Source: a virus
UHGV virus genome: UHGV-0205610
Reading direction: 5' to 3' (one strand)
Length of the DNA stretch: 43,268 nt
The translations under genes and the position numbers were made by a program. Every line of letters starts with the position of its first letter. Positions within the stretch are counted from its first letter, which is position 1. Below the pieces are notes generated by a model that saw only the letters and a list, made by a program, of their open reading frames with translations, had not been told where the DNA came from and made no database searches. This document shows positions 2,458 to 19,436 of the stretch, one piece after another.

Positions 2458-2958
2458 CTACACTTTCTCGACTGTGCCGCCAGTGATATATGCGGTATAC
2501 AATGCCGTTTCCTCGTTATCAAAGAGGATCGGCTTTTTCTTCGTACTGTCGAAAGCCCAATGTAACGAGTTGCCATATCCTGCTTCTATTGATGTCAGAC
2601 AATACTTTTGATCATTAATTATTTTCCACTTCAGCTCTTCCTCGATCTCGTCTGGAATACGAAGTTCAGTAAAATGTGTCTTATACTTTGGAAAATCGTC
2701 ATCTAGTGGTGTGCCGCAATATGGTGGTTCTTCGACTGGAAAATTCCACCAGAGAACAGGACCAATGTCTTCGTGCCATTTTTCGGCTATTTGAGCGATC
2801 ACTTTCTGCGGTTCGTCTAGTTGCTTGATAATATCTAGAATGTCATCGGAGGCATCATTGTATCCTTCCTTATAATCCGAACTGTCGAGTGACGTTTCAG
2901 GTTTTGAAAAATCATATTTTTCTTTTTTAATTCCTTCGATCAACTTTTGTTTATTCAT
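2458..2958 (-). CDS. hypothetical early protein (about 166 aa)
   Basis: The ORF track gives 2458..3006, but AGGAGG sits 6 nt before the internal ATG (MNKQKLIEG...), which favours a start at 2958. Confidence 0.45.
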   Translation of the reverse strand: MNKQKLIEGIKKEKYDFSKPETSLDSSDYKEGYNDASDDILDIIKQLDEPQKVIAQIAEKWHEDIGPVLWWNFPVEEPPYCGTPLDDDFPKYKTHFTELRIPDEIEEELKWKIINDQKYCLTSIEAGYGNSLHWAFDSTKKKPILFDNEETALYTAYITGGTVEKV

Positions 2959-3031
2959 TCCATACCTCCTAATTTCTATGTGATCAAAAAGTTGATTAAT
3001 GATCACATAGATTCTTACTTGATAGGCTGAG

Positions 3032-4276
3032 TTACCGGAGCTTCAATCTTCTTGCTATGTCGAAAATCACCGCTACAGTAACGCTATTTCCTGCTTGTTT
3101 ATATAACTGACTCGCTGAATTTACTGCGGCCGCACGATCAAACGCCCAATCAGGAAAAGTCTGTAATCTCCAACATTCTCGTGGGGTCAATTTTCTAATA
3201 TGCAATTCCTCAGTAACTACACCTTGCTTTTCTCCAATCACCAATGTATTAACGATCTTTTTCCCTACACGACCTCGACGAGTTTTAGAATTCGGATGAG
3301 AGATATTTACGCCATCCCCTGGTTCCGCTACTGTATATCCTTTTGATGTTGCCTCTTTAATCAGTATTTTTGGTTCCTGCCCGCCTCCTTGCATCGTTGA
3401 TAAGGTTGGCGCTAACCCCTCGGAATTATAAACTCTAGAATTTTGGTCATGATTTCCAGGTAATTTCCCCGCAATCATAATGCCGTGTCTGTCCTGAGCC
3501 GTGAGAGTAAACATTTCTTCCCCGTATTCTTTGAATCGCCTACCATTTTGACGCTTTTCTGCTCGATCAGGTGTTAAAACAGGAATTGCTATTTTCAAAG
3601 GATCCTTTTGAGTAGTAGTGCTGCACATAGTTGGAGAAATGCTATCAATCGATACTACATCTCCGCTTTGAGAAGAACCCTTTTTTCTTATGTTTCCGAT
3701 TTTTTTGATTCTAAATTGTCTATCAGTCTCTGAGTCATCGCTTCCGAAAGGAAATATTTTTTCGGTACCTGCTCCTCTAAGATGTCCGATAATGAAAACT
3801 CGCTCCCGGTTTTGTGGAACGTAGTCCTTAGAGTTAAGCACTTGCCATTCCACATCATACCCGAGTTCATCCAAGGCTCTGAGGATTGTCTCGAACGTAG
3901 CCCCTCCTTCGTGATTAAGGAGTCCTTTGACGTTCTCAAGGAATAAATAGCTTGGTCTGAGAATAGATGCGAACCTTGCAATTTCAAAGAAGAGAGTTCC
4001 TCTAGTATCCTCGAAACCTTGTCGCTTTCCTGCAATTGAAAAAGCCTGGCACGGAAATCCTCCACAGATAACGTCGACACTTCCGATTCCTCGAATAAAC
4101 TCATCTGTAATTGTTGTGATGTCATACATTTCAACCTCGTTTTCTGTATCAAATATTGCTTTATAGCTTTTTCTAGCAAATTTATCTTTTTCGCAAAAGC
4201 CAACACATTTATGCCCGGCTTGTTCCATTCCGAGACGGAAGCCGCCGATCCCTGAGAATAAGTCTAAAAACTTCAT
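3032..4276 (-). CDS. DNA (cytosine-5)-methyltransferase, orphan
   Basis: C5-MTase motifs in order: FSGIGG (motif I), GGFPCQAFSIAG (motif IV, PCQ), ENVKGL (motif VI), QxGNSV near the C-terminus. No adjacent restriction endonuclease gene. Confidence 0.9.
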   Translation of the reverse strand: MKFLDLFSGIGGFRLGMEQAGHKCVGFCEKDKFARKSYKAIFDTENEVEMYDITTITDEFIRGIGSVDVICGGFPCQAFSIAGKRQGFEDTRGTLFFEIARFASILRPSYLFLENVKGLLNHEGGATFETILRALDELGYDVEWQVLNSKDYVPQNRERVFIIGHLRGAGTEKIFPFGSDDSETDRQFRIKKIGNIRKKGSSQSGDVVSIDSISPTMCSTTTQKDPLKIAIPVLTPDRAEKRQNGRRFKEYGEEMFTLTAQDRHGIMIAGKLPGNHDQNSRVYNSEGLAPTLSTMQGGGQEPKILIKEATSKGYTVAEPGDGVNISHPNSKTRRGRVGKKIVNTLVIGEKQGVVTEELHIRKLTPRECWRLQTFPDWAFDRAAAVNSASQLYKQAGNSVTVAVIFDIARRLKLR

Positions 4277-5113: not shown

Positions 5114-5566
5114 CTAAATACTACCTGTTTGAAAACCATAATGTGCAGTTTCAACGCCGTCATAATCACTTATTTCCCACTCAGCCCCATCGGGTATATC
5201 AACGACTTTAAGACTTGCATATGGTCCACTGGCCTCACTTCCTAGTTTTTCGACAACAGCAACGAGGTCCTTATCACCTCTGTTTGAATCACTTGAAAAA
5301 CTGGAATCATCAGCAATTCCGTACAGTCGGTCAATTTCGCTATAAATTCCTGTAACTTTGTCGATTTTCGGGTCTTTTTTGAAATAGTAGATAAAATCCA
5401 TCGAACCTAGCTTTTGGCCTGTGTGTCTCGTGTATTCATCATCTGAGTCATAGCTAAAGTTATTGATGTATGGGAATACTTCAATATTTTTTCTTTTAAA
5501 AATTTCCATTTTTGCTTCATGGCTCAACCCAAAGCCACCAAAACATTTATTTAATACAATCTTCAT
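5114..5566 (-). CDS. hypothetical phage protein (150 aa)
   Basis: ORF MKIVLNKCFGGFGLSHEAK...; no family recognised. Confidence 0.45.
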   Translation of the reverse strand: MKIVLNKCFGGFGLSHEAKMEIFKRKNIEVFPYINNFSYDSDDEYTRHTGQKLGSMDFIYYFKKDPKIDKVTGIYSEIDRLYGIADDSSFSSDSNRGDKDLVAVVEKLGSEASGPYASLKVVDIPDGAEWEISDYDGVETAHYGFQTGSI

Positions 5567-5591
5567 TACTTTTCCTCCTTTGTTTACTTCG

Positions 5592-6062
5592 TTAGCTGAA
5601 TTTTTTCATAAACACAAGCCAATGTGTTTTGCTTCGTTTATTACCAAACAATGGCTGTTCTCCAATAGCCTCTAACACCTCAGAAAGTGGAACCTGATCC
5701 TCGTTCCATTTAAAAATTAGTGTTCCAGCCGGCCGCAGAACTCGCATACATTCTGCAAAGCCTTGTCTTATGTCTTCTGGCCATAGTTCATCTAGTCGAC
5801 CGTATTTCTTTGCCAACCAAGAGCTTTCACCAACGTTAATAAGATGCGGCGGATCAAAAACAACCATGTCAAAAACGTCATCTTCAAACGGCATATCTCG
5901 AAAGTCAGCAACAATATCTGGATCAACATTGACCACGTGGCCTGTTGGTAGTTCTTCGTAATACTGCCGGCAATCCATGAATGTTACGTCTGGATTTTCC
6001 TTATCAAACCAGAACATCCGGCTGCCGCAACAAGCATCTAAAATTCTGGGCAAACCAGTCAC
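5592..6062 (-). CDS. small SAM-dependent methyltransferase, probably DNA N6-adenine/N4-cytosine type
   Basis: ILDACCGSR matches SAM-binding motif I; VVFDPPHL matches the DPP(Y/H) catalytic motif IV of amino-MTases. 156 aa, as in small phage orphan MTases. Confidence 0.5.
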   Translation of the reverse strand: MTGLPRILDACCGSRMFWFDKENPDVTFMDCRQYYEELPTGHVVNVDPDIVADFRDMPFEDDVFDMVVFDPPHLINVGESSWLAKKYGRLDELWPEDIRQGFAECMRVLRPAGTLIFKWNEDQVPLSEVLEAIGEQPLFGNKRSKTHWLVFMKKFS

Positions 6063-8363: not shown

Positions 8364-9292
8364 TTCGGTTCTCCTTGTTTCGCAATGTATTGTTTCAGTT
8401 CCTCGACTTCTTCTGTTTTCAATTTCTTTCGTTTTGCATATTCAGTTAGAGTTAATCCAGAATCGAATTGCTTCTCACGAATGAACACTTCATACTGCAT
8501 AGCTACGTAACTCTCTGATCGTGGTTTCCTATTACCAGCAGGTTGTTTACTTTGCTTGTTAGCAGTTTTTATATCTTCGGATTTCACTTGTTTCACCGAT
8601 GTAAACTTTCGTTTTTCCCAGTCCTTTAGTATTGAATTGACATAGGAATATTTTCTGACATTATTGTCAATTGCTATTCCAAGAGCATGAATGATCATTT
8701 CTCCTGCATCTTCATCAGTAGCTCCGATATTTATTAAATCCTCCAGCCAATAAGCGAAGTCGGTAATTGTTTTGTGAGTGATGGAACCAAATCCATTATT
8801 TTCGTAGTAGTCGTGAATTTTTTTCTGTATTACTACTAACCTATCCTTACCTAACCTAACCTTACCTAACCTAACCTGTGTATCCATTTGGTATACCGGT
8901 TGGTTGTCAATTGGTATACCAACATTTTCATTTGGTTCTAAAACGTTGGTACTAAAGGTATAAGCCTTACTTTCTTTATCAGTCAGCATTGCTTTTTCTT
9001 CTTGATATAAGGTCGGCTTATACCTATCGTTGCGAATGTAGTTGTGGATTTTCCAATGCTTGATCACAATTACTCCACTCTCAAAAACTAAGATGAATTT
9101 CTTCGCCATCAAAAGCTTTAAATCATCATCCCCACATCCAACCATTCGTTGAATTTTCTTTGGATTATTTATAAAGCCATCATCATCAGCGCGCATAGAT
9201 AAATGAAAATATAAAGCTTGACTTGATAGCGGCATATCTAAAAAAGCATCACTATCGATAATTGTTTTTGCGAACATTCTGCGTTCTGCCAC
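8360..9292 (-). CDS. phage replisome organizer / replication initiation protein
   Basis: N-terminus MFAKTIIDSDAFLDMPLSSQALYFHLSMRADDDGF is typical of the phage replisome-organiser N-terminal domain. The gene contains DNA iterons (next feature). Confidence 0.7.
   Translation of the reverse strand: MAERRMFAKTIIDSDAFLDMPLSSQALYFHLSMRADDDGFINNPKKIQRMVGCGDDDLKLLMAKKFILVFESGVIVIKHWKIHNYIRNDRYKPTLYQEEKAMLTDKESKAYTFSTNVLEPNENVGIPIDNQPVYQMDTQVRLGKVRLGKDRLVVIQKKIHDYYENNGFGSITHKTITDFAYWLEDLINIGATDEDAGEMIIHALGIAIDNNVRKYSYVNSILKDWEKRKFTSVKQVKSEDIKTANKQSKQPAGNRKPRSESYVAMQYEVFIREKQFDSGLTLTEYAKRKKLKTEEVEELKQYIAKQGEPN
8837..8877. repeat. Iteron array: about 9 tandem pentamers (CTAAC/CTTAC/CTATC), i.e. 2x 15-bp TTACCTAACCTAACC; putative phage ori inside the replisome-organizer gene
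   Basis: Direct tandem repeats read off the sequence. They encode RLGKVRLGKDRL in the protein. Confidence 0.6.
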
Positions 9293-9500: not shown

Positions 9501-10225
9501 TCCTTTATTTCATAATCTGGGTTATCATCCAATTGTTTCATTTGCTTTTCGCTCATCAGTCCGAAGTCTAGAATTTGTTGATCAGAGAGTTTGATTGCTC
9601 CTACATGCCATTTTTGACAAAACTCGTCATATCCAAGTTGATGAATCTCATTGTGTAATTCGGCTCTAAGTATCATGTAATAGCGCCCACGATGATCAAC
9701 CTTAGAACGTTTTCCCATCCCGACGGCGTTTACGTGGTGTATGTGTAGCACCGCATCTTGTCGGCGTGCTTGAGTGACGAAACAACGGTTGTGAAGCGCC
9801 GACAAGAACATTTTTCTATTCATATCGTGAACTAGATATAAATCCTTTCCATCAAATGGAATGTCATAATGAAAACAGTATTCAACTAACCATGAGATAA
9901 ATTGTGTTGCTAAATCTTTGCTGCAATTCGATAATGAGAATAGTTTTTCATAAGGCAGTCCTCGATCAATACAAAACTTAATCTTTAGATCATCTTCGGT
10001 ATTTTGAATAAACCACTCATTATCCGTATAGCTATCAATGTCTCTAATCAACGCATGAGCGATTTTCTGTTGCGGGCGTGTTACTTTATTCGGATTGAAT
10101 GCTTGAGCCGTCAGCAACGTTTTACGTCGTTTGACGAGCAGTTCTAACTCTTCTTTACTGTCATCAATCGGTCGAACAACAAAGTCGCCGTTAGACTGCT
10201 TGCCTACGATTCTTATGTTCAACAT
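9473..10225 (-). CDS. hypothetical protein with His-rich (possibly HNH/metal-binding) motif
   Basis: 250-aa ORF; the segment LHIHHVNAVGMG...DHRGRYYMILRAELHNEIHQ looks like a metal/nuclease-type motif. Family not firmly recognised. Confidence 0.45.
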   Translation of the reverse strand: MLNIRIVGKQSNGDFVVRPIDDSKEELELLVKRRKTLLTAQAFNPNKVTRPQQKIAHALIRDIDSYTDNEWFIQNTEDDLKIKFCIDRGLPYEKLFSLSNCSKDLATQFISWLVEYCFHYDIPFDGKDLYLVHDMNRKMFLSALHNRCFVTQARRQDAVLHIHHVNAVGMGKRSKVDHRGRYYMILRAELHNEIHQLGYDEFCQKWHVGAIKLSDQQILDFGLMSEKQMKQLDDNPDYEIKDWQLPERAG

Positions 10226-10229
10226 TTCA

Positions 10230-11228
10230 TCACTCTCTTACAGGTGGTTTGTCCTTATCGAACAATTCTTCTTGTTTTACTTCTTCATCCTCTTTAGGAT
10301 CGTCAGCTTTAGGTTCTTCCGTTCTTTCAAGAATCCCTTTTAAATTTTTCAAACTCTTTATTGGTAAATCATCAATTCTTCTTCCGTTAGCTTTCCCCAT
10401 CATTTCATCGAAGACAGACTTTCTCGCTGATGATTCTTCAGACATGCCTATGATATCCATCACTAATTCCCGTCTCTGTTTTTCTAGATCGATTCCCTGA
10501 TCAGACCAATCATAAATTTTCCGTCCAGTTTCCAATGACACGTTAAACGGAAGATCAAACATATTAGAGTTATCTTTCGTTGCTTCGGCAATATGGTCTT
10601 GATCCATCCTCAATGCAATAGCGAATTCATATTCAAGGGCATCTTTTTGGTCTGGCTTAAGCCCCATTTTTACTATCTTCGTTTTACCTTTTTCATCCTT
10701 ATCGAAATCATAGGCTTGTTTGCTTCGAGATGTAGCAATCACATAAACTGAGTTGCCAGTCACTAGTTTAAGAAATTCTTTTTCCAGTGGTTTTACTTTC
10801 GCCCAAGCCTGCATATTTTTACTTGAATTACCTTTGGTAAAACTTTCTACTTGTTCCAAAATCCCGCCTTCACCGCTCCAAGCGTGAGAAATTGAATCAA
10901 TTATCACTACTTCGATGCCTTCAGCTTTCATTAACCGAAATGCCTGAATATAATTGTTCACTGTGTATGGAGGCTCAAAGTCCAAGTGTAAGAATTCTCC
11001 GATATATACACCAGCCACAGTGGACTCTGCATATAAAAGTGCTCTCTTATGTTCCGTATCAATAACCCCGATTTTCAACCACTGTTCCTCGTCTGATAAA
11101 TCGGGATACATTTTTTCAACGATCCCTTTTGCAATTAAAAGAGCTGATACTGTTTTTCCGCTGCCGCTTGCTCCAGTGATCATAATGGGAACTTTTAGCT
11201 TTTCCCGCTTCGCCTTTTTAACTTCCAT
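10230..11228 (-). CDS. AAA-family (RecA-like, Sak4/AAA_24-like) ATPase
   Basis: Walker A ITGASGSGKT, Walker B-like VVIIDSIS. Position between a Gam-like gene and ssb is typical of phage single-strand-annealing/recombination modules. Confidence 0.7.
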   Translation of the reverse strand: MEVKKAKREKLKVPIMITGASGSGKTVSALLIAKGIVEKMYPDLSDEEQWLKIGVIDTEHKRALLYAESTVAGVYIGEFLHLDFEPPYTVNNYIQAFRLMKAEGIEVVIIDSISHAWSGEGGILEQVESFTKGNSSKNMQAWAKVKPLEKEFLKLVTGNSVYVIATSRSKQAYDFDKDEKGKTKIVKMGLKPDQKDALEYEFAIALRMDQDHIAEATKDNSNMFDLPFNVSLETGRKIYDWSDQGIDLEKQRRELVMDIIGMSEESSARKSVFDEMMGKANGRRIDDLPIKSLKNLKGILERTEEPKADDPKEDEEVKQEELFDKDKPPVRE

Positions 11229-11229
11229 G

Positions 11230-11769
11230 CTATTTTTCCACCTTTACGGATAATTTTTCGCCTTGCGGAATAACCTTAACCGCTTCAATTACTTCACCGT
11301 CACTATTTACAATTCGTCCACCTTCAAGAACCGATACCGATTTCTTAAATGCTGCTTTATCAACTTCTTCATTAATCCTCACGTATTCAGTCATCCCTAA
11401 TTTTTTCAACTCTGCAACAGCCTCTGAAGAGTATTCCCATTTATCGGGAACTTTCCTTGTCCCAACTGTTCCATGTGGCGTTTTGATTCGAGCTTTAGGA
11501 TCATCTTTCCGTAATTTATTTAAGTATTCACTTAGCTTCTTTTCGAAAAAACTGATTCTCTCGTTATTACTTTCGGTTTCTTTTGTCTCCCAACTCGCGA
11601 TTCTTTCTCGTTCCAAATCAGCGAACTTCTTAATTTCATCATTTTGACTTTGAAGAGCTGAAATTTTTCTTAGTGCCCAATCTGCGCCACCGATATCATC
11701 GATGGTCCATCCTTCTACTGAAGTTTGCTCCAAATCTTCTAATTCATATTTTTCTAAGATGTTCATCAT
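11230..11769 (-). CDS. Mu Gam-like host-nuclease inhibitor protein (tentative)
   Basis: About 179 aa with a coiled-coil N-terminal half and a KTPHGTVGTRKVPDKW segment resembling the conserved h.HG.vgfRk.p motif of Gam-family proteins. Confidence 0.45.
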   Translation of the reverse strand: MMNILEKYELEDLEQTSVEGWTIDDIGGADWALRKISALQSQNDEIKKFADLERERIASWETKETESNNERISFFEKKLSEYLNKLRKDDPKARIKTPHGTVGTRKVPDKWEYSSEAVAELKKLGMTEYVRINEEVDKAAFKKSVSVLEGGRIVNSDGEVIEAVKVIPQGEKLSVKVEK

Positions 11770-11852
11770 CCTTACCCTCCAATTTCAGTCCGCAAATCGA
11801 ACAAAACTTATGATCGTCTTTGATACGTTCGTTTCTACATCTTGGGCATTTT

Positions 11853-12191
11853 CTATTCACAAGCTAACGTCCCTTCTATTTTCTTTCGAAGATACTCTTT
11901 GCCTTCGATAGCAAAGCTGTAATCTTGATATTCAATGCCGACATCATCAATTAATTCCACATAGTTATCAATCGTCACATATTTCGCGAACGTAATTGTT
12001 GTTAAGCAATCATTTGCTACTTTTCGTTTCTTAAAAACTACTTTCATAACTAAATCATCCGGCAATACTTGAGTGCCAAAATCATCATACATATAGTCAT
12101 ATTCTGATTTATCATTTTTAATTTGCGTCTGATTAACATTCGTAAAAACATGATTATCAGGATCTGATATTGCTTTATCGTAATCAAACAT
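11853..12191 (-). CDS. hypothetical protein (112 aa)
   Basis: ORF. Confidence 0.4.
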   Translation of the reverse strand: MFDYDKAISDPDNHVFTNVNQTQIKNDKSEYDYMYDDFGTQVLPDDLVMKVVFKKRKVANDCLTTITFAKYVTIDNYVELIDDVGIEYQDYSFAIEGKEYLRKKIEGTLACE

Positions 12192-12396
12192 GGTATATTC
12201 TCCTTGAAAATAAAATATTGTTTGCTCACTAATTGCTTGCCGGCGTAGTGAGCTTTTTTTGTTCCCAAGCTTTTCTTCGCTCGATGTTCTGTTTTGCTAG
12301 AATCGTTGACTCGTTATGATGCCACCATCGATCAGCAATGATTTTCCCAATTTGTAATGCTTCTTTTTTACTCATACTCTCCTCACCCCTTTCAAT

Positions 12397-12406
12397 TTGA
12401 TATAAT
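12397..12406 (+). promoter_or_regulatory. Extended -10 promoter element TTGATATAAT upstream of the plus-strand moron 12421..12852
   Basis: TGATATAAT matches the TGnTATAAT extended -10. The same decamer recurs at 14674..14683. Confidence 0.45.
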
Positions 12407-12420
12407 GGTTTAAAAACTGG

Positions 12421-12852
12421 ATGGTGATTTTTTTGAAACTAGATTTATCATTTACAATTACAGCGATCATTGCACTTTGTGCACTAATTACCCCCTTGTT
12501 AACGACTTATTTAAACAACTCACATCAACGAAAATTGAGAGAATTAGAATTCCATCAACAGGAGCAAACTCAAGATTTTTTATATGTCCGTGAAAAAATG
12601 GATAGCTATCTCGAAACAGTTGGGCAATTTATTGGAAGTGGCACAACCATCAATCAAGCTGCTTTCGAAGAAGCTCATTTTTCTTTATTGCCTATCATTC
12701 CAATTGAAATGATCCCGATATTCGAACAATTCTATAAAACATTAATTGTCGAGCATAACTTGCAAAAGACTAGAGATGATCTTCATAAAGTCATTATTCC
12801 CTTTTTAAAATCCATAAAAATGGGCCCAGCTCCAAAGACAGAAAACAATTAA
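12421..12852 (+). CDS. hypothetical membrane protein (moron, opposite strand to the early operon)
   Basis: 143-aa ORF with a hydrophobic N-terminal helix (ITAIIALCALITPLLTTYL) and an own promoter. Confidence 0.5.
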   Translation: MVIFLKLDLSFTITAIIALCALITPLLTTYLNNSHQRKLRELEFHQQEQTQDFLYVREKMDSYLETVGQFIGSGTTINQAAFEEAHFSLLPIIPIEMIPIFEQFYKTLIVEHNLQKTRDDLHKVIIPFLKSIKMGPAPKTENN

Positions 12853-12968
12853 AATGAGAAGAGCGTAATACTTGTACCAATAATTCTTCGAGGCTATCCT
12901 CATCATTAGCATTATGCATACTAATGTTATGAAACATGAAATAAATAATATAGATGGAAAAATCATTA

Positions 12969-13121
12969 TTAGTCAGCCCCCTCGGTTGGCTTTTTCTTTT
13001 CCCATCCAATTGCTAGGAGAAAGATTCCGATATAGCCGTATGCTGCCAACATACTAAATTTTGAAAAAACTGGGATAGCTAACATGCAGATGATCGTTGT
13101 TGCTAAGTTGATTTGTTTCAT
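12969..13121 (-). CDS. small hydrophobic protein (about 50 aa), not in the ORF track
   Basis: Translates as MKQINLATTIICMLAIPVFSKFSMLAAYGYIGIFLLAIGWEKKKPTEGAD. AGAGGAA RBS 6 nt upstream. Starts 16 nt downstream of the Rha gene stop. Confidence 0.4.
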   Translation of the reverse strand: MKQINLATTIICMLAIPVFSKFSMLAAYGYIGIFLLAIGWEKKKPTEGAD

Positions 13122-13136
13122 TTCCTCTATTCCTTC

Positions 13137-13850
13137 CTATGCAGTTTCTAAATTCAAGCTCATTTGTCGCACTTGCATCTTTGTTGCTGTGGACGGTTCC
13201 CAATCATTGATGAAATCTAAGACTGTTTCATAGTGTCTGTTTCGTAACTGAGTTCTTGTTGATACTCCAGTTACTGCTTTAACACCTGAATTGATATCTT
13301 TATGGAGTTTTCCTCGTTGTTCTTGAGTAAGTTTTCCAAATCCTCTGGCAACTTCCGAAACTCGTTGATTGATTCGACGACTGATATATCCGTAATCGCC
13401 AGCGCTGAGCACCGTGTTCTCTTCTAAATCAGCAACACGAGTGTCTAGTTCATCAACACGCTGATTCGTTTCTTCGCCAGCGGATAAAGCTAGTAACGCC
13501 AAATCTCTTGGTGTTGATGGGATTTTCACTTGTTGCTTGATGTGTTCCTCCATTTGATCGAACGCGTCGATGTATTTCAATTTGAACGAATCTGCTTTGC
13601 GCCCTGAAAAGCCAACTGCAATAAAAGTCCAACCGGCACGATTCATGTAGTACATTTTTTGTTTTCTTCCACGAGAATCTACATAAGAACCTAAAGCAAA
13701 CATCTTTTTGTAATGAGCTGAATTTTCAGCCGATTGAATTTTGGCTTCAATTGCTTGTATTACATTCTTGTGTTCTTTCTCAAAACTTTCTGCCAAGTTC
13801 AAACTTGTCGTGACCGCTTGACGATCCTTCATGATTACTAAATCTTTCAT
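13137..13850 (-). CDS. Rha-family phage regulatory protein / antirepressor
   Basis: N-terminus MKDLVIMKDRQAVTTSLNLAESFEKEHKNVIQAIE is the typical Rha N-terminal domain. AAGGAGG RBS. Confidence 0.8.
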   Translation of the reverse strand: MKDLVIMKDRQAVTTSLNLAESFEKEHKNVIQAIEAKIQSAENSAHYKKMFALGSYVDSRGRKQKMYYMNRAGWTFIAVGFSGRKADSFKLKYIDAFDQMEEHIKQQVKIPSTPRDLALLALSAGEETNQRVDELDTRVADLEENTVLSAGDYGYISRRINQRVSEVARGFGKLTQEQRGKLHKDINSGVKAVTGVSTRTQLRNRHYETVLDFINDWEPSTATKMQVRQMSLNLETA

Positions 13851-13881
13851 TTTTTTGTTCCTCCTTACTGTTAACTCTTTG

Positions 13882-13890
13882 TGTTATAAT
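13882..13890 (+). promoter_or_regulatory. Extended -10 (TGTTATAAT) for the NDT-like moron
   Basis: TGnTATAAT match 30 nt upstream of ATG 13920; GAGG RBS at 13906-13909. Confidence 0.45.
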
Positions 13891-13919
13891 TTATAAAAAC
13901 GAAATGAGGTAAATTCATT

Positions 13920-14411
13920 ATGGATACTCTTAAAAAGTGTTTTTTCATCACTCCAATGGGTAAGAAAGATTCTGAAAGCGATTTGCGTTCAAAACAAATT
14001 ATTAAGAATCTGAATCAGCTGTTCGCTAAAAATGATGTTTTTATCAAAATTCAAAGAACCGATCAATATAATCGAACTGGTGTAATGACCGATAATATCC
14101 ATAACCAAATTAAAGAATCTGATTTGGTTATTGCTGACTTAACTCGCAATAATCCAAACGTGGCATACGAGCTTGGGTATGCGAATGCCTTCAACAAACC
14201 AATTATCCAAATTTGTTCAACTGACGCCTTTCAATTGTCTTCCGATTGGCGCCACATCTACACGCTGGACTATAATTTGGAAAATGAATGTGCTAATTTT
14301 CAGTTCGAACAAGAACTTCTGGGGGTTATCAAGGGAATCAATTTCGACCCCAATTACACTCCCGTAACTCCTACTCTAGGATTTGTAAGTATAGGAGATA
14401 CTGATGATTAA
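13920..14411 (+). CDS. nucleoside 2-deoxyribosyltransferase-like (NDT / TIR-like Rossmannoid) protein, moron
   Basis: 163 aa. CFFITPMG (beta1, compare the NDT YLAGP element), DLVIADLT, and NPNVAYELGYANAFNKPII closely matching the NDT catalytic-Glu motif (GTAFEIGYA..GKPV). Plus strand inside the minus-strand early operon, with its own promoter. Confidence 0.5.
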   Translation: MDTLKKCFFITPMGKKDSESDLRSKQIIKNLNQLFAKNDVFIKIQRTDQYNRTGVMTDNIHNQIKESDLVIADLTRNNPNVAYELGYANAFNKPIIQICSTDAFQLSSDWRHIYTLDYNLENECANFQFEQELLGVIKGINFDPNYTPVTPTLGFVSIGDTDD

Positions 14412-14635
14412 CCGCGATCGACAATTCCTTTAGCGTACCCTTGTAAATAGCTTATTTGTACACCTAAGTTGGAACGTTCTTTATCAGTCATTCCACTTTT
14501 TTCTCCTAAGCCATTCAAATAAAAACAAATACCAACTAATAGATTCATACAATCCTCTACAGAAGCATCATTTTCTTTCAAAAAATGTTCAGCTTCTGTT
14601 TTGCTTTTTAATACTTTTTTGTTAAATTCTGTCAT
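14408..14635 (-). CDS. hypothetical early protein (75 aa)
   Basis: ORF; its stop overlaps the stop of the convergent NDT-like gene (shared TTAA). Confidence 0.45.
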   Translation of the reverse strand: MTEFNKKVLKSKTEAEHFLKENDASVEDCMNLLVGICFYLNGLGEKSGMTDKERSNLGVQISYLQGYAKGIVDRG

Positions 14636-14673
14636 TTTGTTACCTCCTTTGTTTTTTGTTCATCCCACCTCGT

Positions 14674-14683
14674 TTGATATAAT
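14674..14683 (+). promoter_or_regulatory. Extended -10 promoter element TTGATATAAT for the small plus-strand ORF
   Basis: Identical decamer to 12397..12406. GGAGG RBS at 14695-14699; ATG at 14707. Confidence 0.45.
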
Positions 14684-14706
14684 CAGACTGATTGGAGGTG
14701 AAAAGT

Positions 14707-14868
14707 ATGAGTGTTGATGCTGAAAAATTTGCTCAATCTGTAGTTTCTTCTTCTGACTCAAAACTTGATCTACAGGAAAAATTAAACATGTATATCGAAG
14801 CTAAGAAACTTGCAGAGAAATTTAACCAGCGTGATGAGAATAATTCGAGTACGTTTATACCTTACTAA
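14707..14868 (+). CDS. small plus-strand ORF (53 aa) with own promoter, RBS and terminator
   Basis: Translates as MSVDAEKFAQSVVSSSDSKLDLQEKLNMYIEAKKLAEKFNQRDENNSSTFIPY. Hairpin AAACTGCTGCAACAGTTT plus T-run at 14904-14935. Not in the ORF track (<60 aa). Confidence 0.35.
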   Translation: MSVDAEKFAQSVVSSSDSKLDLQEKLNMYIEAKKLAEKFNQRDENNSSTFIPY

Positions 14869-15092
14869 CTATTAAGAACCTTCATCGACTCGATAAGCCC
14901 TGAAACTGCTGCAACAGTTTTTGGGTTTTTCTTTTTCTTAGCGTAATCAATTACCTCTGCTAGATATTCGTTTAGAGCTACTACATTTTCTCTGTCAATT
15001 AACGAGGTAACCCGATTACCATTGCTTAACAAGTTCAATTCTTTGTCATTTTCTTTTTCCATCCTCTTCACCTCCTCGTGTAGTTGGTTCAT
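14865..15092 (-). CDS. hypothetical early protein (about 75 aa)
   Basis: The ORF track gives 14865..15170. The internal ATG (MNQLHEEVKRMEK...) is preceded by AAGGAGG, so the start is probably 15092. Confidence 0.45.
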   Translation of the reverse strand: MNQLHEEVKRMEKENDKELNLLSNGNRVTSLIDRENVVALNEYLAEVIDYAKKKKNPKTVAAVSGLIESMKVLNS

Positions 15093-15388
15093 TTTGTTGC
15101 CTCCTTGCTTTTTATGTTGTTTTGTATACAAAATTCTAACCAGCATTCCCGAATCTCTGGATACTTCCAAAGCCGCTTAGTTGTTGGTGAACATTCCAAA
15201 GCTTGTACATCCGGAGTATTAATAAAATTTTTTTCTAAATATGTCACACTGTGACTCGTGATTTGTACTAACTTGTTAATATCGATGGTTGCGAACAGAA
15301 TTTCTTTCGGCATTAACTTTTTTACTTCGTCACGGATACACTCTTTCGCATACTCTACTGGATCAAATAGGTTTGGCTGTTCTAACAT
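15089..15388 (-). CDS. hypothetical early protein (99 aa)
   Basis: ORF immediately downstream of the Cro-like gene. Confidence 0.45.
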   Translation of the reverse strand: MLEQPNLFDPVEYAKECIRDEVKKLMPKEILFATIDINKLVQITSHSVTYLEKNFINTPDVQALECSPTTKRLWKYPEIRECWLEFCIQNNIKSKEATK

Positions 15389-15400
15389 ATTAACCCCCTC

Positions 15401-15577
15401 CTATTCCAAGTCCAAAGCAGCCTTGATTTCTTTGATTTTCTCTTTCGGACTTCGTTTTCCATTCATAATGTCAGACATATAAGCAGTTGAAATATTTAAC
15501 TGCTTAGCTAACCAAGCTTGATTCTTTCCTTTCTTTACCAACGCTATTTTGATTTGCGTAATTAAATCTTGCGACAT
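15401..15577 (-). CDS. Cro-like XRE-family HTH regulator (58 aa), not in the ORF track
   Basis: Translates as MSQDLITQIKIALVKKGKNQAWLAKQLNISTAYMSDIMNGKRSPKEKIKEIKAALDLE, with a classic HTH (QAWLAKQLNISTAYMSDI). GGAAGGAGAG RBS. Divergent from the CI-like repressor. Confidence 0.7.
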   Translation of the reverse strand: MSQDLITQIKIALVKKGKNQAWLAKQLNISTAYMSDIMNGKRSPKEKIKEIKAALDLE

Positions 15578-15878
15578 CAATAATCACTCTCCTTCCCTAT
15601 TTTTTGTAAGCTAATAAAATTAGCTAATATGGGTTGATATTTTTATGCAAATGTTTTAGAATGAGTTCATAGCTAAATAAGCCTAGAACGAACCTATTAA
15701 AACAACATTCTTAGTTTGGCGACATCGAATTGTTTATTTTTATTAGGTGTATTTCTTATTGCTTGTTTGCTTATTGAATTAGCTTACACAACATATATTA
15801 AAACATATGCATAAATTAGTCAATGATTTTTACCCATTTGTTTTAATGTATTTGTTAAGCGGTGAGGAGAATGCCGTA
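15578..15878. promoter_or_regulatory. Lysis/lysogeny switch region with repeated ATTAGCT/AGCTAAT operator half-sites
   Basis: Near-palindrome AGCTAATAAAATTAGCT at 15609..15625. Further half-sites at 15671..15676 and 15779..15784. TTGATA...TAGAAT promoter-like elements. AT-rich. Confidence 0.5.
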
Positions 15879-16250
15879 ATGACGCTGTTTGAAAGGTTAA
15901 AATTTTTGGCAAAGAAACAAGGAAAATCAATCAATGACGTAGAAAATGATATGGGGTATTCAAAAAATACATTGTATAGGTTTAAAAATACTAACCCCAG
16001 CGCAAAAAAACTCCAAGAAATAGCTGATTATTTTCAAGTATCTGCCGACTATCTTCTTGGGCGTACTGATAACCCTAACTTAGATCGCGAGAAAATGCCA
16101 AAAGAAATCGATGTCAAAGATGATACTGTCATCATGACCTATGGCGGAAAACCTGTTTCAGATAAAGATCGTGAAATCATTCTTGCAGCAACACGAGCTC
16201 TTGTTGAACAAAGGGCACGTGAAGAGGAAGAAAGAAAAAAATCTAAGTAG
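15879..16250 (+). CDS. CI-like XRE-family repressor
   Basis: HTH (GKSINDVENDMGYSKNTLYRF) followed by a second domain. The ORF track starts at 15807; the internal ATG at 15879 (MTLFERLK) follows GGTGAGGAG. Confidence 0.75.
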   Translation: MTLFERLKFLAKKQGKSINDVENDMGYSKNTLYRFKNTNPSAKKLQEIADYFQVSADYLLGRTDNPNLDREKMPKEIDVKDDTVIMTYGGKPVSDKDREIILAATRALVEQRAREEEERKKSK

Positions 16251-16258
16251 GTGTCTGT

Positions 16259-16669
16259 ATGTTAATTTTTTTGAGGAACTTTGCCAAAAAAATAGGTGTG
16301 GATGTACTCTATTTAGATGATATTGATGAGGATGGGTGCTATCTGCCAGAACACAATGTAATATACATCCATCCTGGATTGTCTGAATACGAAGAAATCC
16401 AAGTTTTGTCACATGAATTATCCCATGCTTCTAAGCATAAAAATTTCTACAACGAGTACAGAGACTCTTATATTTCACATTGTAAAGCGGAAAACGAGGC
16501 AGATATAGAAGCAGTAAAAACTTCTCTATCGCATTATTTAAACAATGCACAAGTGACTGATAGATCACAATTAAACTGGATTTATTTCATGGATTGCTAT
16601 AATATCGATTATTCATTAGAGCCAGTCGTAAAGAAATGGATGCCTATCATTTATCAACAAGTGTGTTGA
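16259..16669 (+). CDS. ImmA/IrrE-family metallopeptidase (anti-repressor protease)
   Basis: HEXXH motif HELSHASKH. Immediately downstream of the XRE repressor, the canonical ImmR/ImmA arrangement. Confidence 0.8.
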   Translation: MLIFLRNFAKKIGVDVLYLDDIDEDGCYLPEHNVIYIHPGLSEYEEIQVLSHELSHASKHKNFYNEYRDSYISHCKAENEADIEAVKTSLSHYLNNAQVTDRSQLNWIYFMDCYNIDYSLEPVVKKWMPIIYQQVC

Positions 16670-16722
16670 TTATTATTTTTTAACAACTGACGAACGTACG
16701 TTCGTTAAAAGGAGGACATTTT

Positions 16723-17967
16723 ATGGCAACATTCAGGAAAAGAGGAAAAAAATGGGAGTATCGAATTCGCTACGTTGATCCAATTACTGGAAAAAAGGCT
16801 GAGCATAGCAAAGGTGGATTTGATACAAAGCCAGAAGCAGAATATGCAGCTGCAGAAGCGTATATTAATGTTAAAGACGGAACCGTGGCTAAAAACCCAA
16901 ATATTCTGTTCAGAGACTACGCAGACAGTTGGTTTGATACTTATAAAGGTTCTGTCAAAGAAACGTCTCTACGATCACGTGAGACCTATTTAAACACACT
17001 CAAAGATACATTTAAACAATTGCGGTTGAACAAACTCACTCACAACCTTTATCAAAAGAAATTGAATGAGCTATCTAAACGATATAAACGGAATTCACTT
17101 ATAGCCGTGAACCAGGTCGCGCAGATGATTGCAAAGCAAGCAGTAAAAGATGGATACTTCAAAGCAAATCCCATTGCCGACATAAAAATACCGCATTACG
17201 AAGATTCAAACGAAAAAATCGAATTTTGGGAATTAGTCGATATCCAAAAATTTAGAGATTATTGCTTATCTGAAATAAATAAAAAGAGAAAAAAAGGTAG
17301 TTACTACATCACATTAGAAAAACAACGCGATCTCGCTTTGTTTTATTTGCTGATTTATGGTGGATTTAGAATAGGCGAAGCTTGTGCACTGCACATGAAT
17401 GATTATTACCCACTGACCAAAGAAATCAATATATCAAAAACATTGGGTTCACCAGCTTCAAATCAATTAAAAAATAGCTATAAGATTTTTCCGCCAAAAA
17501 CAAAAAGTGCTTATAGGACTATTCCTCTACCAGAGATTGCCTATAAGCAACTAGAAAATTGGATAAACCTACGAAATGAATATGTTGAACTCTTTCCGTT
17601 AGTTTTTCAAGAATCACAATTTTTATTTTGTAAAAAAGACGGTTCACCCATGACTCCTAGAGACATGAGAACTAAATTTAACGTGATAATAAACAAAGCA
17701 AATCTAACAAAAATTACATTACATGGCTTGCGCCACACATACACTGCTCTGCAAATCCAAGCGGGGACTGATCCGAAATCATTGCAGATGTTACTAGGTC
17801 ATTCTAATGTAAAAACCACTTTAGACATTTATGCCCACATTACCGGAGACAAACGTAGAGAAACTATTTCGCAATTCGATAAAATGCTTAAGCAACTCGA
17901 TAGCGGGGCAAAAGCGGGGCAAGACGAAAATCAACAAAAAAACAACAGCGAGAATAGCGCTATATAA
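16723..17967 (+). CDS. int: tyrosine site-specific integrase
   Basis: N-terminal arm-binding/SAM-like region. C-terminal catalytic box LHGLRHTYTALQIQAGTDPKSLQMLLGHSNVKTTLDIYAHI (R..HxxR..Y). AAAGGAGG RBS. Confidence 0.9.
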   Translation: MATFRKRGKKWEYRIRYVDPITGKKAEHSKGGFDTKPEAEYAAAEAYINVKDGTVAKNPNILFRDYADSWFDTYKGSVKETSLRSRETYLNTLKDTFKQLRLNKLTHNLYQKKLNELSKRYKRNSLIAVNQVAQMIAKQAVKDGYFKANPIADIKIPHYEDSNEKIEFWELVDIQKFRDYCLSEINKKRKKGSYYITLEKQRDLALFYLLIYGGFRIGEACALHMNDYYPLTKEINISKTLGSPASNQLKNSYKIFPPKTKSAYRTIPLPEIAYKQLENWINLRNEYVELFPLVFQESQFLFCKKDGSPMTPRDMRTKFNVIINKANLTKITLHGLRHTYTALQIQAGTDPKSLQMLLGHSNVKTTLDIYAHITGDKRRETISQFDKMLKQLDSGAKAGQDENQQKNNSENSAI

Positions 17968-18230: not shown

Positions 18231-19436
18231 GTGAAAAAAATTGTCGGGGTTCTTACCTTGCTGTTACTGCCTTTCCTGCTGACAGCGTGCGGGAAAAATA
18301 TAACTGTTGATGATTTAAAAGCTCATAATTGGGTAACTGAAGCTACTAATGATGAACCAAGTATGATCGTCAAATTTACTGATCATATCGTTAGTTTTAA
18401 AGTTGATGTCGACTCAATGAAATCGACTGCGTCGAACGAATGGGAAAACATCGGCGAAGAATTAGGCAAAAGTATTGTCGATGAAATGGAATTTAAATAC
18501 GAATACACTTTAGATAAAAATAATTTGACTTGGATTGATGACGAGGATAAAAACAACAACGCTGTCTATGACCTTGAAAAAGATGGGAATAATTTAGTCC
18601 TAACACCTAACAAAGACGAAAATGAGAAAGATAGAGAAAAATTGGTTTTAAAACCTTACTCGAAAAAAGCTAAGGTAAAGAATAGCTCCACCACTTCGAC
18701 TAAAAAGATAACGAAAGAAGCAGTCGATTTAAATACCGTTGTTGATCAATTCAAAAAGGACGGACTAGAAGTAAACAATCTAAGAAAAATGACCAAAGAT
18801 GATTACGAATCTGCCCCTTTAAAAGCAAAAAACGGAATGATTTTTGGTGTACAAATGGGATCTGACGGAGAATATCAGAATGCACGTATTTTTTCTTTTG
18901 AAAATATAGATGATTTGAACGATACCAAAAAATACTATGACGATCTTGGTAAAGAATCATCTATGACTTTTTCCTATACTGCTGCGAATGAGGATAAATT
19001 AGTGTTAATGCAGTTCAATGGGGATTTGCCAAAAGAAGTCGTCGATAAGTATGTAAATAATGCAGATCTGACCTTAACACCCGTAAGTTTCGATACAAGT
19101 TCTCAAGATACGCAAGTTGATAACACGAATAGTTCTACAGATACTGCTAGTCCAGAACAGCAACAAACACAACAAGAACAAACTGCTCGACAACAGGATC
19201 AAGCTCAGCAAACCCAAGACCAACAGCAACAAGCTAATCAACAAACACAACAGGATCAGCAGCAAAGTGACACACAAAATGATGCCAATGCTCAATACGG
19301 AACTGTTCAACCTGGCGAAGGACCTCAACAAATCGCTGGACGATATGGAATTTCTGTCGATGAACTATTCGATGCAAATGGAATGGATAGAAGCAATTTC
19401 TATTTTGATCCAGGCCAACAAATTCGAATTAAATAA
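18231..19436 (+). CDS. LysM-domain lipoprotein with Q-rich low-complexity linker (moron)
   Basis: GTG start. Signal peptide plus lipobox LLTAC. Gln-rich repeat region (QQQTQQEQTARQQDQAQQTQDQQQQ). C-terminal LysM (QYGTVQPGEGPQQIAGRYGISVDELFDANGM). Confidence 0.7.
   Translation: MKKIVGVLTLLLLPFLLTACGKNITVDDLKAHNWVTEATNDEPSMIVKFTDHIVSFKVDVDSMKSTASNEWENIGEELGKSIVDEMEFKYEYTLDKNNLTWIDDEDKNNNAVYDLEKDGNNLVLTPNKDENEKDREKLVLKPYSKKAKVKNSSTTSTKKITKEAVDLNTVVDQFKKDGLEVNNLRKMTKDDYESAPLKAKNGMIFGVQMGSDGEYQNARIFSFENIDDLNDTKKYYDDLGKESSMTFSYTAANEDKLVLMQFNGDLPKEVVDKYVNNADLTLTPVSFDTSSQDTQVDNTNSSTDTASPEQQQTQQEQTARQQDQAQQTQDQQQQANQQTQQDQQQSDTQNDANAQYGTVQPGEGPQQIAGRYGISVDELFDANGMDRSNFYFDPGQQIRIK

Follow-up and report, generated by a model that had tools for sequence, protein, structure and literature searches.

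What might an enzyme gene contribute to a phage when it lies on the plus strand, in the middle of an early operon that is read from the minus strand? The question is raised by UHGV virus genome UHGV-0205610, a stretch of 43,268 nucleotides (nt) that looks like a whole phage genome and is called the window here. An open reading frame (ORF) at 13920..14411 of its plus strand encodes a protein of 163 amino acids (aa) starting with MDTLKKCFFITPMG. An earlier reading of the letters alone, referred to below as the original prediction, described it as a stand-alone enzyme related to nucleoside 2-deoxyribosyltransferases (NDT), TIR domains and SLOG proteins, carried as a moron of defence or anti-defence function. 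The length, strand and place of the ORF were confirmed by ORF reading, and the analyses presented here placed the enzyme in the NDT/TIR (DrHyd-TIR) Rossmannoid superfamily, as a divergent protein at the NDT/TIR boundary. Judged from sequence comparisons, its gene forms with a convergent gene for a 75-aa protein a two-gene cassette that is exchanged between mosaic phages. As to function, we consider it plausible, if still tentative, that the enzyme is a defence effector of the N-glycosidase type that is made in lysogeny and that the early operon silences and neutralises upon induction.

Fold and family of the enzyme

The superfamily named in the original prediction was borne out by both profiles and fold comparison. 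Pfam family PF05014 matched the enzyme over part of the profile with 31.2 bits against a curated cut-off of 28.8 (E 2.7e-7), and the PADLOC model PDLC00733, the 'Effector TIR' of the cyclic oligonucleotide-based antiphage signalling system (CBASS), gave a partial match at 3.4e-6 over residues 44-109. The PADLOC model of ThsB matched partially at E 0.004, and none of the Pfam TIR families PF01582, PF13676, PF08937 and PF10137 matched at E <= 1. In the fold comparison the enzyme showed the TIR fold, with scores of 11.9 for IL-1RAcPb and 11.1 for both MyD88 and SARM1, and further scores of 10.2 for Rcl, 9.9 for Cap12, 9.3 for SpbK and about 9 for ThsB. The fold is of the flavodoxin-like alpha/beta type with five parallel strands, superposable on NDT, DNPH1 or MilB, and the comparison to TIR domains, Rcl, Cap12, SpbK and ThsB thus confirmed the NDT/TIR fold. 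The link to SLOG proteins found no support, the nearest profiles being PF05014 and the CBASS effector model, and membership of the SLOG/LOG group is not favoured.

The YELG motif of Rcl/DNPH1 holds the catalytic glutamate, which is the nucleophile in Rcl. With a profile built from the five closest sequences, residues 56-98 of the enzyme aligned with rat and human Rcl/DNPH1, YELG on YELG; this result comes from a shallow alignment, and a Protein Data Bank search with a deep alignment was swamped by matches to C-terminal coiled coils and was uninformative for the enzyme domain. From the alignment and from the invariance of the residue in the family, E84 (codon 14169-14171, plus strand) is the predicted catalytic Glu, in agreement with the catalytic-Glu context that had been read from the sequence. 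E84 opens the helix that comes after the DxVxAxx strand, as the nucleophilic glutamate of the PF05014 enzymes does. All invariant or near-invariant positions of the family (F8, P12, G14, S18, R46, D73, N78, N80, Y83, E84 and D109) are retained in the window enzyme. Its beta1 strand, KKCFFITPMG, carries the invariant F8 and no Tyr. A Tyr hydrogen-bonded to the catalytic Glu marks the 2'-deoxy-specific NDT/DNPH1 enzymes, and NADase TIRs usually have Phe or Ala there (PMC11204291). The beta1 Phe of the window enzyme only possibly corresponds to that position of NDT and TIR enzymes, and it is not taken to indicate a substrate.

The family to which the enzyme belongs is very large and unnamed. An exhaustive HMMER search of 1.84 billion representatives returned 15,137 clusters (50% identity) at E <= 0.001 and 1,941 at E <= 1e-10; close relatives of the window enzyme are few (four clusters, 64-98% identity). 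A search with an alignment of the phage clade brought the number of species representatives with relatives to at least 450, spread over bacterial phyla, and added one archaeal metagenome-assembled genome. The typical member has 230-350 aa and consists of the N-terminal domain followed by a low-complexity, coiled-coil-like C-terminal extension, which could act as an assembly mediator (TIR NADases are usually activated by oligomerisation) and is missing from the window enzyme; a few members are tandem duplications or fusions to Sel1/TPR or PP2C domains. No NCBIfam family covers the enzyme or its 75-aa partner, PHROG 3634 ('unknown function') matched the enzyme at 6.8e-31 over the N-terminal half of a 237-position profile, and the source names of the homologues were all 'hypothetical protein' or evident mis-calls. 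The statement that this was not a recognised phage function therefore stands.

The profile matches of the family as a whole point to effector proteins. PDLC00733 matched 53 of the 53 members sampled (best 2e-18) and PF10137, the family of Cap12/Pycsar TIRs, matched four of them, which argues for effector kinship; PF05014 matched 23 of the 53 (best 3.6e-8). Amongst the bacterial contexts examined were a singleton between pheS and pheT, a singleton amid housekeeping genes, and an integrated element with Mrr and a ThsB_TIR gene. The 148 immediate neighbours in 77 bacterial genomes included no fixed partner; phage integrase was counted six times, SIR2_2 and CHAT four times each, and PIN, resolvase, Trypsin_2 and others two to three times each. 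This is a tally of neighbours and not an enrichment figure, and it gives the family neighbourhoods a mobile-element and conflict-system flavour. The number of clusters and species, the singleton positions and the integrase, SIR2_2 and CHAT neighbours argue for a conflict-type distribution.

These observations bear directly on the possibility that the protein is an N-glycosidase or transferase of the NDT/DNPH1/MilB type serving phage DNA metabolism, for example by clearing non-canonical or modified deoxynucleoside monophosphates (dNMPs) or other nucleotides, or by base salvage, with no role in conflict. The original prediction had itself set a check of this kind, and the homologues were found not with salvage genes but in prophage accessory positions or as bacterial singletons by integrases, SIR2_2, CHAT and PIN; no gene of the deoxynucleoside kinase, dUTPase or thymidylate-synthase type was present in any neighbourhood examined, phage or bacterial. 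Additionally, the gene runs against the replication and early genes and not with them, the N-terminal substrate-binding half cannot be aligned to NDT/DNPH1, and the family fits the CBASS effector model better than PF05014. The conserved partner on the lytic strand, described below, would have no obvious role beside a salvage enzyme. We regard the metabolic explanation as unlikely.

A convergent gene pair in the early region

The original prediction gave the enzyme gene its own promoter and ribosome-binding site (RBS), and sequence elements of both kinds are present. An extended -10 promoter-like element, TGTTATAAT, lies at 13882-13890 (plus strand), with no good -35 at this element, and a Shine-Dalgarno-like GAGG at 13906-13909 (plus strand) precedes the ATG by 10 nt. 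The stop codon TAA occupies 14409-14411, and the TTAA at 14408-14411 is common to the stop of the convergent ORF at 14408..14635 on the minus strand. By a consensus scan, terminator-like sites were located within 12000-16500 at 12235 and 12971 only, both away from the gene pair, and none was on the minus strand. The overlap of the two stops, with no terminator in between, was thus as predicted.

The convergent ORF at 14408..14635 encodes the 75-aa partner in early-operon orientation. Its RBS, GGAGG at 14643..14647 (minus strand), is 7 nt ahead of the ATG at 14635, and its C-terminal motif is QISYLQGYAKG. No family of Pfam, PADLOC, PHROG or NCBIfam matched the partner and no DNA-binding domain was detected in it; the protein was predicted with low confidence (predicted local distance difference test score 67) to be all-helical, with three helices and the motif in the last. 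In every close relative the partner adjoins the enzyme gene, while the replication module, the repressor type and the integrase vary. The convergent ORF still overlaps the enzyme 3' end in two diverged lineages in which the enzyme is 66% and 64% identical and the partner 37% and 60% identical, so that the two genes have diverged together. The ratio of nonsynonymous to synonymous substitution rates of the partner was 0.23-0.25, and the nonsynonymous divergence (pN) of the enzyme was about 0.2 with saturated synonymous divergence (pS); these comparisons indicate that both genes are under purifying selection. The exact enzyme protein was present in 94 blocks of the assembly collection, which together with the purifying selection ruled out a chance ORF or pseudogene.

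The two genes also move together. Window positions 12000-16000 were compared by blastn with related loci (denoted by L and a number), and the limits of the shared segments define a minimal exchanged cassette at 13880..14649, consisting of the promoter, the enzyme gene, the partner gene and the partner RBS. Shared segments extended over 13845-14649 in L034, 13880-14608 in L031, 13932-14577 in L006 and 13094/13110-14649 in L001, L002 and L012. In L031 homology begins at 13880, at the promoter element; with other mosaic phages it ends at 14649, just past the partner RBS, and the flanks of the cassette vary between loci. The moron-like layout that had been claimed for the gene therefore holds, but the description as stand-alone does not, as a conserved convergent partner travels in the same cassette. 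Two further genes were considered as components. The Rha antirepressor gene is linked to the cassette in L001-L012 but is replaced or moved in L005, L006, L031 and L034, so that it was ruled out as an obligatory third component, and the plus-strand gene of a 143-aa membrane protein (12421..12852) was ruled out as a second component, being confined to the identical phage L008 and missing from the other phages with the cassette.

The surroundings of the pair are those of a temperate-phage genetic switch. A cro-like helix-turn-helix (HTH) gene lies at 15401..15580 on the minus strand, and a cI-like HTH gene (15807..16250), an ImmA-like metallopeptidase gene (16259..16669) and the integrase gene (16723..17967) follow on the plus strand. 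Family scans of the leftward early series identified the Rha/ORF6C antirepressor, downstream in the early operon at 13137..13850 on the minus strand (PF09669 7e-25, PF10552 1.6e-10), and Gam, an AAA_24 ATPase, an HNH nuclease and a DnaB_2 replication protein. These positions confirmed that the enzyme gene is antisense to the early operon. The consensus scan also found a candidate early (cro-side) promoter, TTGACT-17-TAATAT, at 15795..15823 (minus strand), and no minus-strand terminator-like site from there down to 12000; leftward transcripts from it would run through cro and the partner gene and then antisense over the enzyme gene. Rfam with permissive filters gave no match across 11500-17000, and no known small RNA or riboswitch thus accounts for the overlap of enzyme and partner. 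The large terminase of the window is ~80% identical to those of Enterococcus faecalis phages, and a megablast search of 13000-15600 against 50,697 phage records returned no match and no near-identical phage record.

By tblastn the enzyme domain was found in 60 phage records and 467 IMG/VR contigs. The carriers are mostly temperate phages of Streptococcus, Staphylococcus, Enterococcus and lactobacilli, and also include Klebsiella and E. coli prophages. Two layouts were observed in phages, with short forms antisense in early operons and long forms co-oriented with their neighbours. For 63 distinct phage-borne homologues, the upstream genes were mostly on the opposite strand in 30 (median 219 aa), co-oriented in 22 (median 288 aa) and mixed in nine. 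The gene is antisense to early genes in Staphylococcus phage SA13 and relatives, in Streptococcus phages Javan37, 315.2 and SM1 (gp11) and in a Latilactobacillus phage; the longer form is co-oriented between ArpU and terminase in phiEf11, BH1 and a Dorea phage, and adjoins the integrase in a Klebsiella prophage.

The promoter-like element is also shared. TGnTATAAT and TTAATAAAAA elements were found upstream of the homologues in SA13 and Javan37 (TGTTATAATTAATAAAAA in SA13 and TGGTATAATTTAAATAAAAA in Javan37, as compared with TGTTATAATTTATAAAAA in the window), and TGnTAnAAT occurs within 100 nt upstream in 22 of the 63 distinct phage homologues. The exact sequence TGNTATAAT occurs at four sites in the window, all on the plus strand; as 2.3 would be expected, this count alone is not significant, and the informative part is the placement of the sites and not their number. 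Three of them lie upstream of plus-strand ORFs of the early region (12421, 13920 and 14692), and the fourth lies ~120 nt upstream of the integrase. This fourth site (TGCTATAAT, 16595-16603, plus strand) is inside the 3' end of the ImmA-like gene and is possibly a separate integrase promoter. At about 5960-5970 of L001, upstream of the gene at 6001, the variant TGTTGTAAT replaces TGTTATAAT; the enzyme of this lineage is 98% identical (P0001), and the variant suggests weaker expression of the enzyme in it.

The antisense layout in 30 of the 63 homologues and the conserved promoter-like element favour expression on the lysogeny side, and this bears on whether the enzyme might instead be an anti-defence enzyme. 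Such an enzyme would hydrolyse an immune signal or its precursor (isomers of cyclic ADP-ribose, His-ADPR or another nucleotide messenger) and so counter Thoeris, CBASS or Pycsar. Enzymes acting on NAD-derived nucleotides have the same fold, counter-defence is a frequent role of small accessory phage genes that bring their own promoter, and a Tad2-like (PF11195) gene found a few genes away in related mosaic phages makes Thoeris-type pressure plausible. Anti-defence would be called for during lytic growth, whereas in those 30 homologues the gene lies antisense to the early operon. Furthermore, anti-defence genes do not typically show the overwhelmingly bacterial and chromosomal distribution of this family, the profile closest to it describes an effector domain and not a signal-degrading one, and the convergent partner in the lytic direction is hard to accommodate. 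An effector fits better with the gene orientation, with a family that is mainly bacterial and with a partner on the lytic strand, so that the original alternative of defence or anti-defence can be narrowed, as far as sequence allows, to a lysogeny-expressed effector; we consider an anti-defence enzyme to be improbable.

Small convergent ORFs that overlap the enzyme gene at its 3' end were found in other phages as well. The ISYLxG motif is present in such ORFs of Streptococcus prophages, namely in Javan37_0054 (SISFLRGYIKG), SpyM3_0975 (KISYLKGKVEG) and SM1 gp10 (AISYLRGIVD), and after its definition it was found in a 39-aa ORF of the SA13 type, in IMG/VR locus L035 and in L110, which is Lapidilactobacillus genome locus L156. 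A second, unrelated class of 53-61 aa with the pattern FEKSGE...DFLDxMFKEI...F occupies the same convergent, overlapping position in another clade. Partners of either class were present at 18 of 30 antisense loci, four of nine mixed loci and none of 22 co-oriented loci; the convergent, stop-overlapping small ORF is thus confined to phage forms that are not co-oriented. In bacterial genomes a partner was present at two of 79 loci, both Firmicute and both with short forms, and one of these adjoins a phage replication gene.

The SA13-type ORF, MNKILIRFAINYIKYQQKQLREKEARIKYLEGFLKGKGY, is unannotated and lies on the minus strand at L022 4654-4773 (about 8888-9007 of SA13, JX094501.1). It carries the motif IKYLEGFLKG and has GGAGAG as RBS; its start codon and the TGA stop of the HNH-nuclease gene ahead of it overlap in the sequence ATGA, and it has 7 nt in common with the 3' end of the NDT-like gene SA13_16. 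Within its coding sequence, the hairpin AAGAAGCCC...GGGCTTCTT precedes a run of T and resembles the terminator of SA13_16. In L031 (8001-8715), L032 and L033, which derive from three independent metagenome samples, the partner is frameshifted into a 58-aa N-terminal and a 39-aa C-terminal ORF; both motif and 4-nt stop overlap are preserved in the latter, beside an intact enzyme gene. As this C-terminal ORF has the same size as the Staphylococcus partner, the C-terminal helix may be the functional core.

A pair of this kind could also be read as toxin and antitoxin, with the enzyme as toxin or regulator and the partner as its antitoxin; the overlap would act mainly through RNA (transcriptional interference or a duplex), and the pair would stabilise the prophage or tune induction and not exclude other phages. 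Consistent with this, the two genes are convergent, overlap at their stops and are mobile as a unit, and two unrelated classes of small protein occupy the same position, as is the case with antitoxins and immunity proteins. The frameshifted partner beside an intact enzyme in three samples fits as well, and indicates that the full-length partner is not always required. However, the early operon is repressed in a stable lysogen and the presumed antitoxin would be absent there, which is the reverse of classical addiction; the long bacterial members of the family have no partner at all, and the partner shows no DNA-binding domain. Stabilisation or lysis-lysogeny control by such a pair therefore appears to have only a slim chance of being the explanation.

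A proposed role in the lysogen

The proposal that we favour, of an effector made in lysogeny and switched off at induction, would operate as follows. In the lysogen the early operon would be repressed and the enzyme gene would be transcribed from its own extended -10 promoter, and the 163-aa NDT/TIR-fold protein, as a putative N-glycosidase, would block superinfecting phages. Its target would be the N-glycosidic bond in NAD+ or a (deoxy)nucleotide, and cleavage would lead to metabolite depletion or arrest of the infected cell. Upon induction, cro-side transcription would run head-on through the enzyme gene and suppress it, and the same transcription would express the helical 75-aa partner, which would bind and neutralise the enzyme already made. 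Through this combination of silencing and a partner protein the phage would escape autoimmunity.

Several points weigh against this proposal. The PF05014 alignment spans residues 53-102 only (profile positions 49-100 of 117) and the N-terminal half of the enzyme cannot be aligned to NDT or DNPH1, and no known defence model matches the window enzyme strongly, the best PADLOC match being the partial one at 3.4e-6. The enzyme is a single domain without a sensor domain, and a permanently active NADase would be toxic in a lysogen, where the proposed antidote is not made. With respect to the partner, its motif was found in 14 of 63 partner positions as compared with 14 of 3353 other (background) small ORFs, a count that is partly circular, as the motif had been defined in part on loci that were then counted; only the Staphylococcus, L035 and L110/L156 lineages confirm it independently. 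The partner could also be merely a conserved early gene, with the overlap working at the RNA level only.

In its strongest form, the favoured proposal describes an undescribed prophage immunity system, in which a sensor-less NDT/TIR-fold N-glycosidase would act in lysogens and be paired with a tail-to-tail small-protein antagonist, in which the family would comprise pan-bacterial single-gene conflict effectors, and in which the substrate would perhaps be dNMPs. We hold this full version to be possible but doubtful. If the substrate were dNMPs rather than NAD+, phages that recycle host DNA via dNMPs would be selectively starved. In the literature searched, no description of the enzyme family or of the cassette was found, and nothing linked PF05014, PHROG 3634 or 'deoxyribosyltransferase' to such a prophage defence, an absence that is not proof overall. 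If true, the proposal would give a role to a 'hypothetical protein' family of very large size and would suggest a general design rule for finding effector/antidote pairs in the early regions of temperate phages. A minimal catalytic domain of 163 aa with a natural antagonist would also be a handy system for studying on/off control of NDT/TIR enzymes, and with the 39-aa partner ORF of SA13-type Phietavirus genomes, Staphylococcus aureus offers a genetically tractable test host.

Other accessory genes are present in the same region. A plus-strand ORF at 14692..14868 (58 aa), with its own TGATATAAT at 14675-14683 and GGAGG, likewise runs against the early operon and shares 4 nt at its stop with the stop of a convergent 101-aa ORF at 14865..15170 (minus strand). 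This tail-to-tail geometry is the same as in the enzyme/partner pair; neither ORF matched a family, and sister phages have a 53-aa or 74-aa plus-strand ORF in the position of the 58-aa one. In Streptococcus phage SM1 (L026) two more reversed early genes, gp14 and gp7, at 2921-3598 and 5239-5919, are each overlapped at the 3' end by a small convergent gene (gp13 and gp6). Tail-to-tail pairs may thus be a general design of such early regions and not specific to the NDT-like gene. The plus-strand ORF at 12421..12852 encodes 143 aa with one N-terminal transmembrane helix, has TGATATAAT only 15 nt upstream, so that its leader may be very short, and is followed by a terminator-like hairpin at 12971-12991; it looks like another lysogeny-side moron, for example a membrane protein of the superinfection-exclusion type. 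Between the integrase and the lysis genes, a 401-aa ORF at 18231-19436 (plus strand) has a LysM domain at its C terminus and matches AhpC/TSA weakly; cargo of lysogenic conversion is usually found at this place, by attP.

In sister phages that bear the cassette, the early operon includes, a few genes ahead of the partner, a gene for a 72-aa Tad2-like protein (PF11195, Thoeris anti-defence 2; L001 7285-7503, L002 6669-6887 and L004 3771-3989, all on the minus strand), and no Tad2-like gene was found among the early genes scanned in the window. In L031 an Abi_alpha (PF14337) gene at 9947-10738 (minus strand in the locus) is also reversed in the early region, and a 429-aa SNIPE/T5orf172/MUG113 protein is encoded between repressor and integrase in L007 (11370-12659), L009, L010 and L011. 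The presence of these genes in the phage group indicates that the mosaic phages carry several candidate defence morons.

Comparison with known systems

The TIR effectors of CBASS and Pycsar (Cap12/PycTIR) act with a sensor, and the window enzyme differs from them by having no STING, SAVED or cyclic-nucleotide-binding domain. PF10137, the Cap12/PycTIR family, did not match it, the match to PDLC00733 was weak and partial, and no cyclase or CD-NTase gene was present in the contexts examined (the early genes of the window and the related loci). Similarly, no ThsA-like gene (SIR2-SLOG or Macro) was adjacent in the window or in close relatives, and the ThsB model matched only at E 0.004, which separates the pair from Thoeris. 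From NDT, DNPH1 (Rcl) and MilB (PF05014) the enzyme differs in that only about 50 residues align, the beta1 and N-terminal substrate-binding region being unalignable; additionally, the context of the present family is of an accessory or conflict type and not one of salvage, and NDTs lack the C-terminal coiled coil carried by most of its members.

A survey published in 2022 by Iyer et al. described TIR domains with SLATT in phages of Firmicutes and only ARC-type DrHyd domains in viruses (PMC9503650), so that the present family appears not to be covered there. The likeness lies in TIR-class domains carried by small temperate phages of Streptococcus and Staphylococcus, sometimes beside HTH and zincin genes (PMC9503650). 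An association with SLATT was considered and rejected, as Javan281 and SN10 of that survey (PMC9503650) were not among the 60 phage records and no SLATT domain was detected.

Two systems show how an enzyme of this superfamily can be restrained by another factor. In retron Ec86/Eco1 an NDT-like effector is reported to deplete NAD+ and to be an abortive-infection toxin held by the complex of reverse transcriptase (RT) and multicopy single-stranded DNA (PMC13276650). By analogy, an NDT-like toxin domain in the window would be restrained by a cognate partner, here the proposed small protein; no RT gene was found in the neighbourhood, the Rfam scan of 11500-17000 was empty, and none of the 53 family members gave a match to a PADLOC retron effector model at E <= 0.01. 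The phage protein Nip binds and inhibits SpbK, the TIR NADase of ICEBs1 (PMC11984713). SpbK and Nip are antagonists on different elements, whereas the window pair is in one cassette, and the domains of Nip are SH3-like and HU-like, in contrast to the predicted all-helical structure of the 75-aa partner.

The closest parallel in arrangement is Tha/Ith of Staphylococcus aureus phage 80alpha, a HEPN effector with a small cognate inhibitor in an antisense 'noncontiguous operon', whose expression is mutually exclusive (PMC11087260). Disruption of this arrangement leads to loss of immunity or to autoimmunity on induction, and other antisense genes of the 80alpha early region also switch on induction (PMC11087260). 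There is no sequence kinship between the two systems, Tha being a HEPN RNase and the window enzyme having the NDT/TIR fold, and the two layouts are mirror images: 80alpha has its effector in the cI operon and its inhibitor antisense, whereas in the window the enzyme is antisense and the small protein is in the early operon. Orientation, promoter element and conserved pairing give the window cassette an architecture of the Tha/Ith type, a likeness of architecture only, in which a small protein is paired with a larger enzyme and the products of lysogeny and lysis would be mutually exclusive. The proposed logic would be the same by analogy, with immunity in the lysogen and autoimmunity avoided on induction. 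If this is true, the pair described here would be a second, sequence-unrelated case of the Tha/Ith principle, in which antisense placement and a small cognate inhibitor tie immunity to the phage life cycle.

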